From a bacterium (lineage in GTDB: Bacteria > Patescibacteriota > Saccharimonadia > Saccharimonadales > Saccharimonadaceae), in contig JAUIBD010000001.1 in the NCBI GenBank assembly GCA_030427525.1, forward strand, positions 18,628 through 82,627: DNA of 64,000 bases. The letters are read 5' to 3'. The notes beneath the pieces were generated by a model. It was not told the origin of the DNA. It ran no database searches and worked only from the letters and a program-made list of their open reading frames with translations. Of this stretch, positions 18,337-47,733 are shown piece after piece. Position 1 is the stretch's first letter. Every line of letters begins with the position of its first letter. Both the position numbers and the translations under genes were made by a program.

Positions 18337-19476
18337 CTACCTGTATGTATCTGGTAAGTCCGCTCCACAGTGTGGCCAAGGCTGCCAGCCTCGCCGTTCG
18401 TATAGACCACGCGCGGCTGCATCTTGCTGCGCAGGTGACGCGTCTGCCGGGTCATAGATACCGAAATTGTTTGCCCATGTAGAGTAGCTGAACTGGTAGG
18501 CTCCGCGGTACAAAGGGTTGTTCTTGTTCGCATAGTTTCCACCAGATTCACAGGCGCGGAGTTTTGCGAGTGCAGCTGCAAACCCACCACTAAAGCTTGG
18601 CTTTGCGCCAACAATCTCGACTTGCTCGCTAGCTTTTTCAATTATCACTGTCTTTACTGCACGCTTACTTACTTCTTTACCGTTTTTTACGTACACTTCA
18701 TACGTAACTAGCTTTTTACCTGGAGTTCCTGCAGATTTAACTTTACGGTAGCCCACTTCCCTATTTGCATCTTGGATCTGACGAACTGGTGGCTCGATTA
18801 CTTCTTCGCGAGTCACCAACTGCTTGCCGTCGCGCCATATTTCGATCTTCATTCCAGCGGTAATATTAGTTTGTTTGCTACTAGAGAGTTTATCCTTAGC
18901 GCCTAGGGTAATGTTTTTCTCCTTTAGAAAACCTACAACGTCGGTTGCTTGTGTATACACAGTCTCAGATTCACCGTAGAGTACTAATGTAAGCTCTGTC
19001 GCTCGGTCAATTACCATTCGCTCACTTGCCCCGTCGGCCAGCAGATTATCGGTTAGTTCGAGGCTTGCATTGTCTTCGTCATGCAGAACTATATTTGCCT
19101 GTTTGGCAATTTGTTTAGGGGTACGGTAGGCCGTCATTACCAACTGCTTGGTGGGGCCATCGACTATCACTACTGGCCGTGCCCTATATACGTTTACTTG
19201 GTAATTATTTCCAACAAGCTCTTCGTCTAAACCGGGTTCTACTAAGTCGTTTTTATCAAGCATAATATCTGCTTGCTTAAACACTTCACGTAGAGTTTTC
19301 TTTGAAGTAATGAGACCAGTTTCCTGTCCCTCATCGTGAATAGTAATAAGCCGCTCACCACTGGCAGGTATAGCGTGCGTACGTGGCATAACAGCAATAA
19401 GCACCAGGCTGGCAACTACTATGACAGCGGTGATTAACAGATGAAAAGCTGTAAATTTTTGTGACTCTATTCTCAT
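18337..19476 (-). CDS. RpfB-like resuscitation-promoting factor (DUF348 repeats, G5, Rpf transglycosylase domain)
   Basis: TM anchor, a G5-like segment (GTPGKKLVTYEVYVKNGKEVSK) and a C-terminal ACESGGNY...GAYQFSYSTW...SPAQQD...WPHCG. Confidence 0.8.
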   Translation of the reverse strand: MRIESQKFTAFHLLITAVIVVASLVLIAVMPRTHAIPASGERLITIHDEGQETGLITSKKTLREVFKQADIMLDKNDLVEPGLDEELVGNNYQVNVYRARPVVIVDGPTKQLVMTAYRTPKQIAKQANIVLHDEDNASLELTDNLLADGASERMVIDRATELTLVLYGESETVYTQATDVVGFLKEKNITLGAKDKLSSSKQTNITAGMKIEIWRDGKQLVTREEVIEPPVRQIQDANREVGYRKVKSAGTPGKKLVTYEVYVKNGKEVSKRAVKTVIIEKASEQVEIVGAKPSFSGGFAAALAKLRACESGGNYANKNNPLYRGAYQFSYSTWANNFGIYDPADASPAQQDAAARGLYERRGWQPWPHCGADLPDTYR

Positions 19477-41355: not shown

Positions 41356-41430
41356 TGGTGACCTCACGGGGAATCGAACCCCGATTGCCAGGATGAAAAC
41401 CTGGTGTCCTAACCGTTAGACGATGAGGCC
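41356..41430 (-). tRNA. tRNA-Glu (anticodon UUC), CCA encoded
   Basis: A cloverleaf can be drawn: acceptor GGCCTCA/TGAGGTC, D arm GTCT..GGAC, anticodon arm CCAGG-TTTTCAT-CCTGG, T arm CGGGG-TTCGATT-CCCCG. Confidence 0.9.
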
Positions 41431-41686
41431 AAAATATGAGTGAAACGGCCACGAAATCTGCTTGCATATTTCTGGACATTTCCGAGTATTTTGGAGCTCA
41501 TATGGTCTGAAAGATCCATATGAGGTTTGTTTGTAAGGTGCTGGCACAAAGCCATATTTTTAGCCTACCCTGCGGTAGACTTCAGTTATTCTACCAAAAA
41601 AACGACCCCTTGGAAAGAGCCAAGAGGTTATCGCAGGTGCGGGGGGCGCCGGTGTGAACCAGCGCCGCCCCCGCACCGTAGAGGCG

Positions 41687-41938
41687 TCAGCCCTTCTTGC
41701 GCTTGCGCCGCTTGCCGGTGACGCGGGCGACGTTGCCGTCGATGATCTCAGCGTCACCGTTCTCGAGTGCGAGCTTCAGCAGATGCTCGATCCCGCTCTC
41801 CTCGGCGCCCGGGCAGCGTGCCGCGAGCTGCCGGGGGAAGTCCTGCGGCGAGCAGTTCAGGTCGTCGTGCTTGCCCCGGCGCCAGGCGTTGAACACCTTG
41901 GTGTCGTAGCAGTTCACCGCAACAGATGCGACCGCCAT
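41687..41938 (-). CDS. Small hypothetical protein (83 aa) encoded in a GC-rich foreign insert
   Basis: Almost every third codon position is G or C (atg gcg gtc gca ... aag cgc aag aag ggc tga). GAGGAG lies 8 nt upstream of the ATG, and a GC-rich hairpin follows the stop. The C-terminus is basic (KRRKRKKG). Confidence 0.6.
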   Translation of the reverse strand: MAVASVAVNCYDTKVFNAWRRGKHDDLNCSPQDFPRQLAARCPGAEESGIEHLLKLALENGDAEIIDGNVARVTGKRRKRKKG

Positions 41939-41999
41939 CTATACCACTCCTCGTGGGGGTTGTGCACGTGAACCCGGGTTCCCGGCGTGCAATGTAGTT

Positions 42000-42027
42000 A
42001 CTATACAGCGAAAAAATAATATGTCAA
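42000..42027 (-). promoter_or_regulatory. AT-rich promoter upstream of the GC-rich ORF
   Basis: On the minus strand, TTGACA (42027-42022), a 16-nt spacer, then TATAGT (42005-42000). Confidence 0.5.
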
Positions 42028-42162
42028 CGGGGGTCGCAAGCGTTTTTTCATTCCGCTTGTGCTTATGTGTGAAAAATTACATAGAAATTGTGGGTGCTTA
42101 TGTTTTATGGTATTCTAGTGTAAATCCTATAAACATGGGGTAACAACTGCGAGGAGGTAATT

Positions 42163-43302
42163 ATGCGAAGCAAGCTATTTGGGTTTGTCCTAGCACTAGT
42201 AGCGGTAGCTACAATCGGGGTGGTACAACAACAAACAAACGCGGCCCTACCCGGCCAAGTTGGTGACGCGCCCAGGTGTACGGTAAAAGCCGTAGGTGCC
42301 CGCGCAAGCGCCTTTACTGTAAACGGCGGCAATGCCAAAGTGACATTCAAGGTAACTGGCGACAAAAAATGTCGCGTACAGCTCTCTACCAATTCGTTTT
42401 ATGCACCGAGCATGAATGGTCGCCCCTATGAAAAACAAACTCTATTCGACCGCCAAACCAAAGTATTTGGCCCTGGCCAGCACACCATGAGTGTGGCTGT
42501 ACCTACCAAAAGTACCAAAGCAAAAGGCTGCTACTACCAGCTAGATCTAACCTACGGCACACGCAACGTACTACCTGTACTTGCCTATGCGCACGGCAGA
42601 GTAAACTGCGAAGTAGTCGTACAACAAAACCCTGTGGCGCGCTGTACTGGCCTGAAAGTAGATACCATTAGCCGCACAAAATTCAGCCTGACTGGCACAG
42701 CGATGGCTCGTGACGGCGCCAAGATAAAAGGCTACACCTTTAAGCTTGTACAAGGTGGATCTGTAGTGAAATCAAAAACCATCACTACCAGCGCAAAAAC
42801 CGCTACTACCACTATGGTACGTACGGTACCTGGCGATTACAAAGTGCGCCTAACAGTTAGCACATCACTTGGTGACCGCACCAGCGCAAACTGCGTGGTA
42901 AACCTAACTATCCCACCACTGCCACCAGAACCACCAGTGGTGTACGTGAAGGTATGTGACCCTGAAACTGGGGAAACGCTGACAGTAAAAGAAGGTGAAG
43001 AAGATGCCTATGTACCACTAGGCGACCCGGCTTGCGAAAACGTGCGGGTATGTGTACTCGAAGATGGCACCTTTACCACAATTAAGCAGTCTGAGCTTGA
43101 TAGCAACAGTGAACTATACAGCCTAGACCCCGCTGATTGCGAAGAGACAGAAGAGCCACCAGTTGAAGAGGAATACTACGACTACGAAGAAGTAGAGGAA
43201 CTACCACAAACTGGCCCTGCCGACACCTTGCTGCAGGTAACAGGTGCGATCAGCTTGGCTGCTGCTGGTACCTACTACTGGCTAAGTCGCCGCAACGCGT
43301 AA
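42163..43302 (+). CDS. LPXTG-anchored surface protein (379 aa), short paralogue
   Basis: GAGGAGG SD, signal peptide MRSKLFGFVLALVAVATIGVVQQQTNA, one Ig/PKD-like module, Cys-bracketed repeats, then LPQTG, a hydrophobic helix and RRNA. Confidence 0.8.
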   Translation: MRSKLFGFVLALVAVATIGVVQQQTNAALPGQVGDAPRCTVKAVGARASAFTVNGGNAKVTFKVTGDKKCRVQLSTNSFYAPSMNGRPYEKQTLFDRQTKVFGPGQHTMSVAVPTKSTKAKGCYYQLDLTYGTRNVLPVLAYAHGRVNCEVVVQQNPVARCTGLKVDTISRTKFSLTGTAMARDGAKIKGYTFKLVQGGSVVKSKTITTSAKTATTTMVRTVPGDYKVRLTVSTSLGDRTSANCVVNLTIPPLPPEPPVVYVKVCDPETGETLTVKEGEEDAYVPLGDPACENVRVCVLEDGTFTTIKQSELDSNSELYSLDPADCEETEEPPVEEEYYDYEEVEELPQTGPADTLLQVTGAISLAAAGTYYWLSRRNA

Positions 43303-43318
43303 ATAGCTAGGAACAATG

Positions 43319-43350
43319 AATAACCCTTCTCGCTTGAGAGGGGTTATTTT
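43319..43350 (+). terminator. Intrinsic terminator after the first LPXTG gene
   Basis: A 13-bp stem, AATAACCCTTCTC-GCTT-GAGAGGGGTTATT, whose 3' end runs into a T-rich stretch. Confidence 0.7.
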
Positions 43351-43459
43351 AGTATATTATGCAATGTTTATACCCTATAATTTCGCTATAATACATAACC
43401 ATAATCTGTAAATGGAAAATATAAAGGTTGTGCTTATTTGACAAAAGTTGTATAAAGTA

Positions 43460-43488
43460 TTGACATTTTTATATTTTTGTGATAGAAT
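43460..43488 (+). promoter_or_regulatory. Consensus-like promoter of the second LPXTG gene
   Basis: TTGACA (43460-43465), a 17-nt spacer, then TAGAAT (43483-43488). Confidence 0.6.
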
Positions 43489-43558
43489 GCCATGTAAGCA
43501 CCTCGAAAGAGGTGGGAGGACACTATTAACTTTATTACACCCTGTGAGGAGGAATGTA

Positions 43559-45928
43559 ATGAAAGGTAAACTATTTGGGTTTGCGCTTGCGCTTCTTTCT
43601 GTAGCCACCATTGGTGTGGTTCAGCTTCAGACTAAAGCGTATGTCGACACAACCCCTGACTGTGACCAATACGCAGTCATCAAGTGTGGTACCGCTGGAC
43701 CAGCTCAGCTGCGTACAGAGTACGACACATACAACACTAGCTCGAGTAACGGTTCTACCGTTCGCCAGGGCGACATACACAAGATATTCAGCGCACTAGG
43801 TATTAGCCGTGCTGAACTAAACGGCACCTTTAAAACCGGTGTTGTATACCAAAACGGAAACGTGGTTGTAGGCGGTAAGGTAGTTGCTACCGACGCTCGC
43901 ATGGCAGCTCGTAACCTAGGTGGCACCGCGATTGCTGGTGCAAACGCAGGCATTATGTCTGTAAGCAAAATGGGTAGCGCCCAAGAAGCAATGGTAAAGT
44001 TTGACGCCAATGGCCGATTCCTTTTCGCCGTTATGACTCCTTGTGGTAACCCAGTTGCTGCAAAGGCTACACAGCCAAAACCAGTAGCAAAGTGTGAAAA
44101 CGTGAAGGTTGAAAAACTTGAACGTACTAAATTCCGCTTTACTGCTAGCGCAAGCGCTAAGTACGGTGCTAAAGTAACTGGCTACCAGTTCAAGGTGCTA
44201 CGTGGTTCAAGCGTTATCAAGAATGTAACGCAAAACTCAAACACTCTTACCTACAACCAGCCTAACGCTGGTGACTACAAGGTACGCGTGGTTGCCAAGA
44301 CATCACTTGGTGACAAAACCAGTGAGGACTGTGTAAAGACATTTACTGTACAAGAAAAGCCTGAAGCTTTCTGTAAGAATGTAACTGTGCAGACTATTAG
44401 CCGAACTAAGTTTAGCTTTACTGCAAAAGCATCTACATTCCGATCTCAGGTAACTGGTTACATCTTCCGTGTCTTCAAGGACGGAACAAAGATTGACGAG
44501 AAAACAGTAACGACTAGCAACCTATCTGCAACAGTTAACTACAGTCAAGCGACTGCAGGCGACTACACAGTAAAAGCTATCCTAAAGACGACCCTTGGTA
44601 ACAAGACAAGTGCTGACTGTGAAAAACCATTTAGTGTTACTCCTCCTGAAAAACACCCAGGCGTGAAGGTAGAAAAGACCGTGAACGGCGTTGAGCTTGC
44701 TCAGGTAGCCCTAAACGAGAACTTTACCTACGAGATTGCCGTAACGAACACTGGTGACGTTGACCTAACCAACGTAGATGTTGTAGATACTCCAGAAGCT
44801 GGCGTGACTCTAGCTCCTACACAAGCTGTAGGCACCGTTGCAAACAATACATGGAGCTACACTATTCCTACCCTAAAGGTTGGTGAGACTCAGAACTTTA
44901 CCCTCAACGCTATGGTTCCTGAATACCTAGCTGGTAAGATTAAGAACACTGTATGCGTAGACACTACCGATGTTCCTGGTGAACCAGATGACTGTGACGA
45001 CGCGTATGTAGAAGTACCAAAGCCACACGTAAAGATTAACAAGCTGGTTGACGGCGTAGACTACAAACTAGTGGGTGTAAACGTAGAGTTTACCTACCAA
45101 ATAGCTGTAACCAACGACGGTAAAGTTAACCTAAAGAATGTTAAGGTAAGCGACCAAGCTCCTGCTGGTGTTACCTTCCTAGCAGCAAGTGCTGGTACGG
45201 TAACTCCTACTAGCTGGAACCACACGATTCCTGCCCTAGCAATTGGTGAGACTCAGAACTTTACGATTACTGCGAAAGTTCCGAACCACAAAGACAACTC
45301 GATTGTAAACACAGCTTGTGTAGACGCAACAGAAGTTCCTGGAAGCCCAGACGACTGTGACGACGCAACGGTGGAAACCAAGAAGGTATACGTGTGTGAC
45401 CCTGCAACTGGTGAGATCATTAAGGTTGACCAGTCTGAAGCAGGCAACTACGAACCAGTAAACAGCCCTGCATGTAAAGATATCGTGGTTTGTAACCTAG
45501 AAACTAGCGAGATCGTTACTATCAAGCAGAGTGAGTACGACCAGAACTCTGAGATGTACTCTACTAACCTCGCTGACTGTGAAGAAGAAAACATGGTTCC
45601 TGTTTGTAATCCTGCAACTGGTGAGATCATCACTGTTACAGAAAGCGAAAAGGATAACTACCTTCCAGTAAACAGCGACGAATGTAAAGACCTGACGGTA
45701 TGTCGAGTAAGCGACAAGGCGATCGTGGTAATCAAGAAGAGTGCCTACGACCAAACTGTATACACGACTGACCTAACGAAGTGTGAAGAAACACCTGTAA
45801 CTCCACCTCAGCCACCTGTGAAAGAACTCCCAGTAACTGGTGCTGCAGATGTAGTTGTGAAACTAGCTGGTGCTACTTCACTAGCCGGTGCTGGTGCATA
45901 CTACTTGCTAAGCCGTCGCCGCGACTAA
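43559..45928 (+). CDS. LPXTG-anchored multi-domain surface protein (789 aa), long paralogue
   Basis: GAGGAGG SD and signal peptide MKGKLFGFALALLSVATIGVVQLQTKA. It has two Ig/PKD-like modules, two DUF11-like repeats (VEKTVNGV...NFTYEIAVTNTGDVDL; INKLVDGV...FTYQIAVTNDGKVNL) and Cys-bracketed VC(D/N)PATGE repeats. The C-terminus is LPVTG, a helix and RRRD. The ORF track's 43448 start is an in-frame extension. Confidence 0.8.
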   Translation: MKGKLFGFALALLSVATIGVVQLQTKAYVDTTPDCDQYAVIKCGTAGPAQLRTEYDTYNTSSSNGSTVRQGDIHKIFSALGISRAELNGTFKTGVVYQNGNVVVGGKVVATDARMAARNLGGTAIAGANAGIMSVSKMGSAQEAMVKFDANGRFLFAVMTPCGNPVAAKATQPKPVAKCENVKVEKLERTKFRFTASASAKYGAKVTGYQFKVLRGSSVIKNVTQNSNTLTYNQPNAGDYKVRVVAKTSLGDKTSEDCVKTFTVQEKPEAFCKNVTVQTISRTKFSFTAKASTFRSQVTGYIFRVFKDGTKIDEKTVTTSNLSATVNYSQATAGDYTVKAILKTTLGNKTSADCEKPFSVTPPEKHPGVKVEKTVNGVELAQVALNENFTYEIAVTNTGDVDLTNVDVVDTPEAGVTLAPTQAVGTVANNTWSYTIPTLKVGETQNFTLNAMVPEYLAGKIKNTVCVDTTDVPGEPDDCDDAYVEVPKPHVKINKLVDGVDYKLVGVNVEFTYQIAVTNDGKVNLKNVKVSDQAPAGVTFLAASAGTVTPTSWNHTIPALAIGETQNFTITAKVPNHKDNSIVNTACVDATEVPGSPDDCDDATVETKKVYVCDPATGEIIKVDQSEAGNYEPVNSPACKDIVVCNLETSEIVTIKQSEYDQNSEMYSTNLADCEEENMVPVCNPATGEIITVTESEKDNYLPVNSDECKDLTVCRVSDKAIVVIKKSAYDQTVYTTDLTKCEETPVTPPQPPVKELPVTGAADVVVKLAGATSLAGAGAYYLLSRRRD

Positions 45929-45974
45929 GAGACTGACCGCTCGAAGCTAGAGAGGCCAACTCTCATACAAAAAC

Positions 45975-46006
45975 GTAACCCCTTCCGTATACTCGGAGGG
46001 GGTTAC
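45975..46006. terminator. Bidirectional terminator hairpin between the adhesin gene and the histidine kinase gene
   Basis: A 13-bp stem, GTAACCCCTTCCG-TATACT-CGGAGGGGGTTAC. It overlaps the kinase stop codon. Confidence 0.65.
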
Positions 46007-47310
46007 TTTATTGGTAAAGAAAAGCCGAACGTACTGCCACGGCCTGGCTTTGATTCGAAAATGATTTTGCCATTATGGCCATCGATGACTTCTTTGGCGA
46101 GGTAGAGCCCTACACCCGTGCCATCGGGTCGTTGCATGCGTGCGTTGCTGGCGCGGAAAAACTTTTCAAATAGTTTTTCTTGCTCTGCCAGTGGCACGCC
46201 AATACCTTGGTCGATTACTTTTACCGAGAGCTGTTGTTTCGTTTCAGTCAGTTCAACTGTGATGGTCGTTTTTTCGGGACTATAGTAAATAGCATTATCC
46301 ATGAAGTTCATCAGCACTTGGCGGATTTTTGATTCATCTACCGACACCATTACAGGTGTTTCGGGCACTTTTAGATCAATGGTGAGACCACGAGCCTTTG
46401 CGTTTACTTCTAGCTGCTTTGCTTCTTGGCGAATAATTTTGGTAATATCTGTGTCTTTGGCGTCGATTTGAAACTTCCCCGTTTGAATACGTGATACGTT
46501 GAGAAAGTCGCTGATGAGTCGGACCATGCGTTCGCTGCTGAGAAATGCTTCGGAAAGTAGTTTACGTTGTTCTTTGGTTATTTCACCCGCGTCACCCTCT
46601 AGCACCATTGAAAGGTAGCCCTTTATGCTGGTGAGTGGCGTGCGTAACTGATGCGAGGCCATGCTAACGAACTCGTTGCGGGCATTTTCAAGCTCGGTCA
46701 CTTGATCACCTGAACGAGAGTCGACATCAGTAGCTAATGCGACTTTTTGCTCGAGCACACTGTTGCGTGAATGTACTCTGTGTGTGTTGAGCGCACTGGC
46801 TACGGCATGGGCAATATCGTGACGGCTGACATCGATAATGTTTTCTTGCCAGGTGGAAAGTTTGTGTTTAGTACGTATAAATAGGTACCCTACTCGCTGG
46901 TCGGCGTGATTGAGAGGCATCACATAGCGCACTTGATAGCTAGTAAGTAGCTTCGCCACATGGCTACGATCGCTAATCTTTTTTACGTCAATTACCTTAC
47001 TGTGTAGCTCGTCGTCGAGGCTGCGAGCTTCTTTCCATGACATTACAGGAGTAGCTTCTTTTGCTGAATCAACGGTTGTACATTCTTCGTCATCAAGATA
47101 TACCAGCAACGCTACACTTTTCACATGTAGTTCGTACTGCATGGCCATTGCTAAGGTGTACATACGGTCTTCTAGGTCGCGGTGCGAGTGGGCATTGCCC
47201 AAAATACGCATACGCGCCGTGCCGATGGCTTGCGACCGTTGCTTGGACATGGTAATTAGCACTTGAGCCAGCAACAACGCCGCTGCAACACCGAGTAAAA
47301 CTGCTTCCAT
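46003..47310 (-). CDS. Sensor histidine kinase
   Basis: N-terminal TM helix, the HisKA H-box SHQLRTPLTSIKGY and the HATPase blocks DNAIYYS and GTGVGLYL. Confidence 0.85.
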   Translation of the reverse strand: MEAVLLGVAAALLLAQVLITMSKQRSQAIGTARMRILGNAHSHRDLEDRMYTLAMAMQYELHVKSVALLVYLDDEECTTVDSAKEATPVMSWKEARSLDDELHSKVIDVKKISDRSHVAKLLTSYQVRYVMPLNHADQRVGYLFIRTKHKLSTWQENIIDVSRHDIAHAVASALNTHRVHSRNSVLEQKVALATDVDSRSGDQVTELENARNEFVSMASHQLRTPLTSIKGYLSMVLEGDAGEITKEQRKLLSEAFLSSERMVRLISDFLNVSRIQTGKFQIDAKDTDITKIIRQEAKQLEVNAKARGLTIDLKVPETPVMVSVDESKIRQVLMNFMDNAIYYSPEKTTITVELTETKQQLSVKVIDQGIGVPLAEQEKLFEKFFRASNARMQRPDGTGVGLYLAKEVIDGHNGKIIFESKPGRGSTFGFSLPIK

Positions 47311-47364: not shown

Positions 47365-47733
47365 ATGAGCAAAATAGCTATTATCGAAGACGACCCTGTA
47401 ATAAACCAGATGTACCGCATGAAGTTTGAGGCGGCAGGTTTTGATGTTCAGCTGGCAGATAATGGAACTCGCGGTATTGAACTGGTTGAGTCATTTCATC
47501 CTGATATCGTGCTACTAGATCTGCAGATGCCCGAAAAAGATGGCGTAGAAGTACTGCGTGCTGTGCGTGGGTTTGACTGGGCAAAAGATTTGCCTGTTTT
47601 GATTTTGACTAACTTAGGTGAGGAAGAATCACCAAGTGATTTAAAAAGCCTTGGTATTAGCGGATATATCGTAAAAGCAGACTACACACCTAGCCAAGTA
47701 GTTGAGCTCGTTAACGAGACTCTGGCTGCCTAG
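47365..47733 (+). CDS. Single-domain response regulator (CheY-like receiver only)
   Basis: IIEDDP, the phospho-acceptor context IVLLDLQMPEKDG, and LTNL...K. At 122 aa there is no output domain. Confidence 0.8.
   Translation: MSKIAIIEDDPVINQMYRMKFEAAGFDVQLADNGTRGIELVESFHPDIVLLDLQMPEKDGVEVLRAVRGFDWAKDLPVLILTNLGEEESPSDLKSLGISGYIVKADYTPSQVVELVNETLAA

Follow-up and report, generated by a model that had tools for sequence, protein, structure and literature searches.

In Gram-positive LPXTG proteins the repeats of the stalk, such as Rib, SHIRT, the G5-E repeats of SasG/Aap and the B repeats of SdrD, are 50-130 residues long and free of disulfides, being stabilized by their fold, by Ca2+ or by isopeptide bonds. 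Disulfides are found inside the immunoglobulin (Ig)-like domains of the pilins of Actinomyces oris and Corynebacterium, which are folded by MdbA/VKOR and polymerized by an adjacent pilus-specific sortase, and Actinobacteria are the known hosts of cultivated Saccharibacteria. The DUF11 domain, now renamed CLIPPER, is a CnaA-like Ig domain in which an Asp catalyzes an intramolecular Lys-Asn isopeptide bond, as has been shown experimentally, and it is typically found in fibrillar-adhesin stalks (PMC12617251, PDB 9IFR). In Nanosynbacter the known host adhesins are proteins of the type IV pilus tip, and an additional "undiscovered adhesin" has been invoked (bioRxiv 10.64898/2026.10.06.756255). Here we describe two genes, A and B, at positions 42163 to 45928 of a 64,000-nucleotide stretch of DNA (the window; positions 18,628 to 82,627 of contig JAUIBD010000001.1, assembly GCA_030427525.1) from a member of the Saccharimonadaceae, which an earlier sequence-only reading had put forward as sortase-anchored adhesins for attachment to the host. 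On balance we take A and B to be Saccharimonadales-specific, sortase-anchored, rod-like surface proteins on the fibrillar-adhesin plan, for which attachment is the most likely role. That each would form a sortase-anchored, covalently stapled surface rod we say with confidence, because the architecture of the proteins, the sortases of the genome and its disulfide machinery all point to it. We found no paper in the literature that describes these proteins or their Cys repeat.

Genes A and B encode paralogous LPXTG proteins

We made family hidden Markov models (HMMs) for the two heads (N1 and N2), the Ig-like module, CLIPPER and both subtypes of the Cys-bracketed unit, annotated 85 homologues with them, and assigned the following features to the two genes.

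42163..43302 (+), gene A, 379 residues: N1 head, Ig-like module, unit A, unit B, LPQTG (open reading frame and HMMs)
42163..42243 (+), Sec-type signal peptide of gene A, MRSKLFGFVLALVAVATIGVVQQQTNA, read in the sequence, with a putative cleavage site
42244..42618 (+), N1 head of gene A, residues 28-152, with four Cys; basic, isoelectric point (pI) 9.8; family HMM E value 1.4e-66
42628..42912 (+), PKD-like Ig module of gene A, bracketed by Cys161 and Cys244; K319L-like_PKD 23.9 bits against a cut-off of 27; family HMM 5.9e-27
42949..43143 (+), stalk of gene A: unit A Cys265-Cys291, unit B Cys297-Cys326; acidic, pI 4.05
43201..43299 (+), sorting signal of gene A: LPQTG, hydrophobic helix, RRNA (...YYWLSRRNA); NCBIfam TIGR01167 16.0 bits against a cut-off of 15.9
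43559..45928 (+), gene B, 789 residues: N2 head, two Ig-like modules, two CLIPPER domains, units A-B-A-B, LPVTG (open reading frame and HMMs)
43637..44074 (+), N2 head of gene B, residues 27-172; Cys35 and Cys43 a likely pair; Cys162-Gly-Asn164 invariant, Cys162 without a partner
44075..44632 (+), two PKD/Y_Y_Y-like Ig modules of gene B, Cys179-Cys258 and Cys272-Cys354 (Pfam and family HMM)
44654..45373 (+), two CLIPPER (DUF11) domains of gene B (Pfam PF01345 and TIGR01451), with predicted disulfide loops C466-C479 and C587-C600
45389..45787 (+), stalk of gene B: A1 C613-C639, B1 C645-C674, A2 C683-C709, B2 C715-C742
45827..45925 (+), sorting signal of gene B: LPVTG, hydrophobic helix, RRRD (...YYLLSRRRD), preceded by the Pro-rich linker ETPVTPPQPP

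Both proteins begin with M(R/K)xKLFGF(V/A)LAL..VATIGVVQ, and the sequence of each leader can be read as a basic n-region, a hydrophobic core of 17 residues and TNA or TKA ahead of the mature start. The sequence-only reading had recognized a paralogous pair from this leader, from a GAGGAGG motif before each gene and from an ending of LP(Q/V)TG, a hydrophobic helix and RR; all of these are present in the sequence, and in BLASTP the leader, the Ig-like module (38-45% identity) and the Cys units (43-52%) of the two proteins align with E values from 2e-27 to 8e-19. Its counts held as well, with one Ig-like module in A, two in B and two DUF11 domains in B by family HMMs and Pfam, and with two units in A and four in B at the expected positions (Cys brackets 42955-43140 and 45395-45784). 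The anchor of gene B remains below the cut-offs of both TIGR01167 (13.4 bits) and PF00746 (14.8 bits), its motif being evident by eye. The GC content of the two genes is that of the remaining window.

The sequence-only reading had proposed checking the genome for a sortase, and four sortase genes were found (PF04203, 49.9-84.5 bits against a cut-off of 26.6), on contigs C4, C6, C18 and C23 and none of them near A and B on the window's own contig, C2. The largest, at C4:30242-31555 (-), encodes a protein of ∼407 residues with a 200-residue N-terminal extension rich in Gln, Ala and Tyr before its transmembrane helix. It is similar in size to SEML1_0327 of S. epibionticum, a sortase of 448 residues that scored GD/ES/ES and is essential in transposon sequencing (Tn-seq) of strain ML1 on its host (PMC10633639 Table S1). 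A DsbA-like Thioredoxin_4 (thioredoxin-fold) protein and a VKOR are also encoded in the genome.

The Cys-bracketed unit of the stalk

The stalks of A and B consist of short units bounded by cysteines, for which we collected homologues with two queries, the last 190 residues of B yielding 36 proteins and A yielding 51. Subtype A has the consensus VC(N/D)P(A/E)TGEIITVxESEAxxYxPVxSxxC and is always C-x25-C, and subtype B has the consensus VCxLxTKxIVTIxxSxFDxxxY(S/T)xDLxxC and is mostly C-x26-C. The alternation of two units that the sequence-only reading described holds, as A-B in the short protein and A-B-A-B in the long one, but these are not separate units; since the HMM of each subtype weakly matches units of the other, they are by this sequence criterion diverged versions of one repeat.

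Exactly two Cys at a fixed spacing occur in 689 of 694 complete units, drawn from 230 proteins, the other five having one extra Cys in a flank, and no unit is without Cys. Because there are two Cys per unit, and because the stalk of a single-unit protein has no Cys besides that pair, the simplest reading of the pair is a disulfide within the unit. Binding of a metal by the Cys pairs was rejected on the grounds that each unit has only two Cys and that single-unit proteins exist.

An AlphaFold2 model of the four units of B, from a 30-row alignment, has a mean predicted local distance difference test score (pLDDT) of 90.2 and a predicted template modeling score (pTM) of 0.49, and the latter fits an array in the manner of beads on a string. 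Each unit is modeled as a β-hairpin, a short helix, a bridge of one or two residues and a 3-10 turn. The sequence-only reading had asked whether the unit forms a disulfide-stapled stalk, and the confidently modeled units with their fixed Cys pair speak for such a stalk, in which the disulfide is a predicted one. A Foldseek search of the PDB with the four-unit model returned no match with an E value below 1, and neither the Cys-rich stalks nor the N-terminal regions of A and B matched a Pfam or NCBIfam family; the unit belongs to none that has been described.

Ig-like modules and CLIPPER domains

Outside the stalk the two proteins are built from more familiar parts. In gene B the Pfam family Y_Y_Y is matched in two stretches (31.8 bits against a cut-off of 26.6), but the PKD families (PF00801, PF18911 and PF22352) are not reached in either protein, the best scores being 23.9 bits in A and 24.8 in B (PKD_4) against a cut-off of 27. 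On these matches the modules are best called PKD/Y_Y_Y-like Ig modules. Each Cys of their bracketing pair is conserved in at least 90% of 105 modules.

Gene B also matches PF01345 in two stretches (93.6 bits against a cut-off of 24.6), TIGR01451 (61.7 against 24) and, in Pfam, DUF7507, and comes just short of TIGR04226, "isopeptide-forming fimbrial protein" (29.5 bits against 30). The candidate isopeptide triads of its two CLIPPER domains are K373/D410/N463 and K495/D532/N584, and Lys, Asp and Asn are invariant in all 15 diverse family modules compared. Their spacing of +37 and +90 compares with +33 and +91 for K715/D748/N806 of 9IFR, the triads being assigned by conservation and spacing only; a search of PDB sequences with the family CLIPPER profile did not retrieve 9IFR. 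Charge is polarized along the proteins, with a pI of 9-10 for the heads and Ig modules and of 4.1-4.4 for CLIPPER and the stalk.

The head domains N1 and N2

N1 comprises 125 residues that are strongly conserved across 47 modules, and it has no relative in Pfam or among PDB sequences. The fold of N2 is predicted very confidently (pLDDT 96), and no structural relative was found among PDB entries. Among 95 N2 modules only G44, C162 and N164 are invariant, with R118 conserved in 96%. Some members have lost C35 and C43 jointly and retained C162, and proteins in which N2 is followed by the units with no module between have an odd number of Cys; on both counts C162, in the motif Cys-Gly-Asn-Pro, is an invariant unpaired cysteine. 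A thioester domain (TED) was considered for N2 and rejected, as there is no Pfam TED match, no structural match in the PDB and no invariant Gln despite the invariant Cys. Like the Cys unit, N1 and N2 have apparently not been described as domains before and seem confined to one order.

Family architecture and distribution

A profile search of 1.84 billion representatives placed the Cys units only in Saccharimonadales, in 407 protein clusters at 50% identity, of which we annotated the best 145. The order of modules is a head (N1, N2 or other), 0-3 Ig-like modules, 0-4 CLIPPER domains, 1-9 units, a Pro-rich linker and LPXTG. An LPXTG-like anchor is present in 139 of the 145 annotated cluster proteins, and in nearly all of these and the 85 homologues the units are the last element before it, with a few proteins also using units as spacers. 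The heads combine freely with varying numbers of each module, and the proposal that module number is the variable feature is borne out across ∼230 relatives; P0004, for example, is 70% identical to gene B and has one CLIPPER domain instead of two. In the sub-lineage of A and B, leader and anchor are common to N1- and N2-type proteins, which argues that heads are swapped on a common chassis.

We also examined 401 genomes sampled evenly from the phylum, and the unit profile was found in 8 of the 12 from the same family and 2 of the 11 from other families of the order, in neither of the two from elsewhere in the class and in none of the ∼376 from elsewhere in the phylum. When one genome per GTDB species was scanned with a pattern, 79 loci were returned; all those with a name belong to Saccharibacteria, Saccharimonadales or Nanosynbacter, and oral taxon 488 strain 106.1.1 is represented among them by its complete genome.

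Within their own genome the units occur only in A and B. A third relative, of 613 residues (C28:5205-7064, +), adjoins gyrB divergently and consists of a variant N2 without the C35/C43 pair, two Ig-like modules, a Cys-rich linker, DUF11 and LPHTG. Two further LPXTG proteins of the genome are unrelated, among them an LPHTG protein of 681 residues without a Pfam match, encoded at C4:12326-14413 (+).

Transcription and genomic neighborhood

The signals around the two genes and the neighboring genes are as follows.

41356-41430 (-), tRNA-Glu gene of the window
42151..42157 (+), ribosome-binding site of gene A, GAGGAGG, read in the sequence; ATG at 42163
43326..43343 (+), terminator-like hairpin and T-run after gene A
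43460..43488 (+), promoter-like site of gene B: TTGACA, 17 nucleotides, TG, TAGAAT; 11 of 12 matches, a consensus match only
43546..43552 (+), ribosome-binding site of gene B, GAGGAGG, read in the sequence; ATG at 43559
45975..46006 (.), G+C-rich hairpin of 13 bp between the converging gene B and histidine kinase gene
46003..47310 (-), histidine kinase gene: one N-terminal transmembrane helix, HisKA, HATPase_c; a conserved neighbor of the family
47365..47733 (+), response regulator gene: receiver domain alone

GAGGAGG lies 5-6 nucleotides before the ATG of each gene. A mechanical list of open reading frames starts gene B at TTG 43448, which we corrected to ATG 43559 because the ribosome-binding site, the homology of the leaders and the orthologues agree on that codon. 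The terminator-like hairpin after A and the near-consensus promoter before B suggest that the two genes are probably transcribed separately. A short hairpin, AAGCACCTCGAAAGAGGTGGGAGG, without an Rfam match, lies at 43496-43520 in the 5' untranslated region of gene B, between the promoter-like site and the ribosome-binding site; the Rfam search found no structured RNA within or between the two genes. The 10-mer TTGTGCTTAT occurs at 42057-42066 and at 43428-43437, 106 and 131 nucleotides 5' of the start codons of A and B, and the related GGGTGCTTATG lies at 42091-42101. The 10-mer may be a regulatory site common to both genes or be left over from a duplication; as an operator it was rejected, five occurrences in the genome against ∼1.9 expected being too weak an excess. 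Repeats in the DNA of genes A and B are only 64-83% alike. The duplications are therefore old, and the repeats suggest neither a recent duplication nor a slippage-prone, phase-variable tract.

The order in the window is tRNA-Glu (-), a small conserved gene, A, B, histidine kinase (-), receiver-only regulator (+) and FolD (-), such that A and B fill a variable slot (41356-46003) between the tRNA gene and a conserved block of kinase, regulator and FolD. An N2-type orthologue (∼51% identity) precedes the same kinase, regulator, FolD and FolC genes in a locus without gene A. Gene A is missing upstream of the closest relative that gene B has (locus L011), and another locus (L021) has two N1-type genes in tandem in the position of gene A. 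In S. epibionticum (SEML1_0677-0681) tRNA-Glu is followed directly by the kinase with no surface-protein gene between, and kinase, regulator and FolD are kept.

Attachment and alternative roles

In the mechanism that we propose, the shared Sec leader would export each protein, the DsbA-like/VKOR pair would oxidize the paired cysteines, and one of the four sortases would cleave LPXTG and link the protein to the cell wall. From the wall outwards, the layout drawn from sequence and models is a Pro-rich linker that crosses the wall, an array of acidic mini-domains of ∼30 residues, each probably closed by one disulfide, then CLIPPER, which keeps the Lys, Asp and Asn needed for an internal isopeptide bond, the basic Ig-like modules, each stapled by its Cys pair, and finally a basic, lineage-specific head. 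The head would be the ligand-binding part and the number of modules would set its reach. The role would be short-range attachment to a surface, and for an epibiont the host envelope is the most plausible surface.

A ligand-binding head for attachment is the function that the architecture best supports, and the sequence-only claim of host-attachment adhesins is sustained in so far as both proteins are sortase substrates on an adhesin-like plan; the adhesive role itself we infer from that plan, the heads containing no known adhesive domain. Several observations weigh against it. Neither N1 nor N2 resembles any known adhesive or lectin domain, and the isopeptide bonds of CLIPPER and the disulfides of both proteins are predicted only. 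None of the four sortases reaches the cut-off of an NCBIfam subclass. Two probable relatives in S. epibionticum are non-essential or late growth-deficient on the host in the Tn-seq data (PMC10633639 Table S1), namely SEML1_0144 (NE/NE/NE), which has Y_Y_Y and DUF11 and is divergent from gyrB, and SEML1_0329 (NE/NE/GD), which has 379 residues, a PKD-domain annotation and LPXTG proteins as best structural matches. SEML1_0144 is by synteny the probable counterpart of the paralogue beside gyrB on contig C28, and the membership of both was judged by annotation, length and synteny rather than by sequence; redundancy could explain their phenotypes. Finally, S. epibionticum has no surface gene at the locus, and therefore the locus is dispensable for an epibiotic lifestyle as such.

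These same data bear on whether the proteins are instead a coat or spacer without adhesive function, a covalently stapled and protease-resistant brush that would protect the tiny cell, set the spacing of the envelope or present phages and host defenses with a changeable target or decoy. The individual dispensability of the probable relatives on the host, the variable slot beside the tRNA-Glu gene and the heads without a lectin- or adhesin-like match would suit such a coat, as would the fast change of head and module content between relatives, which is expected of surface molecules under diversifying pressure. However, N1 and N2 are strongly conserved and compact and have invariant residues, which a passive coat would explain less well than a particular ligand or chemistry, and a head on a stalk is the plan of fibrillar adhesins. 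We regard the coat as unlikely.

A more far-reaching version of the attachment reading can be drawn by analogy with thioester adhesins. N2 would then be a new fold in which the only invariant side chains, the unpaired Cys of Cys-Gly-Asn and one Arg, could form a reactive site that attaches the epibiont to its host covalently or by redox chemistry, the Cys unit would be an undescribed, disulfide-closed mini-domain that arose in Saccharimonadales as a wall-proximal element dedicated to the stalks of sortase substrates, and the kinase and receiver would tune expression on contact. Taken as a whole we hold this version to be speculative and rather doubtful.

The histidine kinase and CheY-like pair that the sequence-only reading noted directly downstream is there (kinase 46003-47310, receiver-only regulator 47365-47733), and raises the question of whether the proteins are the surface arm of a signaling module that reports contact or wall stress to the kinase and receiver, sensing rather than holding. 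Of the 79 related loci, 46 have a kinase homologue in their flanks, in four different arrangements, where chance adjacency would be ∼7% from seven kinase-like genes per Mb, and the regulator consists of a receiver domain only. A second LPXTG gene of this genome, at C4:12326-14413, is also 700 bp from a histidine kinase gene (C4:9688-11625, -), which is divergent from it, and kinase and LPXTG genes may be paired here more generally. Against this, the kinase of the window has a single N-terminal transmembrane helix and no extracellular domain, and so no apparent route of contact with a wall-anchored protein, the kinase gene and gene B run towards each other into a common terminator, and S. epibionticum retains kinase, regulator and FolD without the surface gene. 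Kinases in the other arrangements may also be non-orthologous, given that phmmer picks up any HisKA/HATPase protein. We consider a sensory role improbable; because the kinase has one helix and no domain outside, a regulatory link is more plausible than a sensory one, and the kinase and receiver probably regulate A and B or are co-regulated with them.

A sortase-polymerized pilus, with A and B as tip and shaft pilins joined from Lys to LPXTG by a class C sortase, is very improbable, for although the genes are an adjacent LPXTG pair with Ig-like and isopeptide-type domains, TIGR04226 is only narrowly missed and the ∼407-residue sortase is closest to class C, its class C score of 82.8 bits is far under the cut-off of 160, no sortase lies near A and B, no conserved pilin-motif lysine is evident in the family alignments, most relatives are single genes and a terminator separates A from B.

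Comparison with known systems

We return, then, to wall-anchored attachment proteins as the reading of A and B to be set beside described systems. Saccharibacteria live on the surface of other bacteria. Only type IV pilus tip proteins have so far been shown to bind the host, and several groups postulate adhesins that act at close range; the ∼400 clusters (50% identity), which include those of cultivated oral strains, offer concrete candidates for these. Three uncatalogued domains, namely the Cys unit, N1 and N2, could join the domain databases, the invariant free cysteine is a point that can be tested by mutagenesis, and the genomic association of the family with a two-component system is conserved. 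Should the disulfide mini-domain prove mechanically robust, it would be among the smallest stalk modules known.

The Cys units share with the Rib, SHIRT, G5-E and SdrD B repeats their place next to the wall anchor, their tandem arrangement in variable copy number and a presumed role in projecting a head. In contrast to those repeats, the unit has only ∼30 residues and one invariant Cys pair, and is without a match in sequence or fold. With the pilins of Actinobacteria the two proteins have in common that they are sortase substrates that would need extracytoplasmic disulfide formation, for which a DsbA-like protein and a VKOR are present here, whereas no sortase gene adjoins A and B and nothing in them suggests a pilin motif.

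PilX1 and PilX2 of Nanosynbacter lyticus (bioRxiv 10.64898/2026.10.06.756255), which stem from the same group of bacteria, meet the same problem of binding to the host wall with entirely different machinery, as minor pilins of the pilus tip with a lectin-like jelly-roll or a β-propeller, without LPXTG and without homology to A and B. The PamA/PamB pili of Ca. Mycosynbacter amalyticus (bioRxiv 10.64898/2026.03.03.709456), which we compared with A and B by description only, are likewise restricted to the candidate phyla radiation, with Ig-like folds and paired Cys thought to stabilize the extracellular structure, but they form filaments by donor-strand exchange and have no described role for LPXTG or a sortase. 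The CLIPPER-stalk fibrillar adhesins, such as B9T28_05395 of Acinetobacter silvestris (PDB 9IFR; Protein Sci 2025, PMC12617251), are alike in signal peptide, distal head, tandem Ig-like stalk and C-terminal sorting signal, and gene B likewise has two CLIPPER domains with conserved Lys, Asp and Asn positions and a predicted disulfide loop near the last strand. The proteins described here differ from that type in having 0-2 CLIPPER domains and heads unlike the catalogued adhesive domains, in carrying an extra, uncatalogued Cys mini-repeat between CLIPPER and the anchor, and in their source, a 1-Mb epibiont of bacteria.

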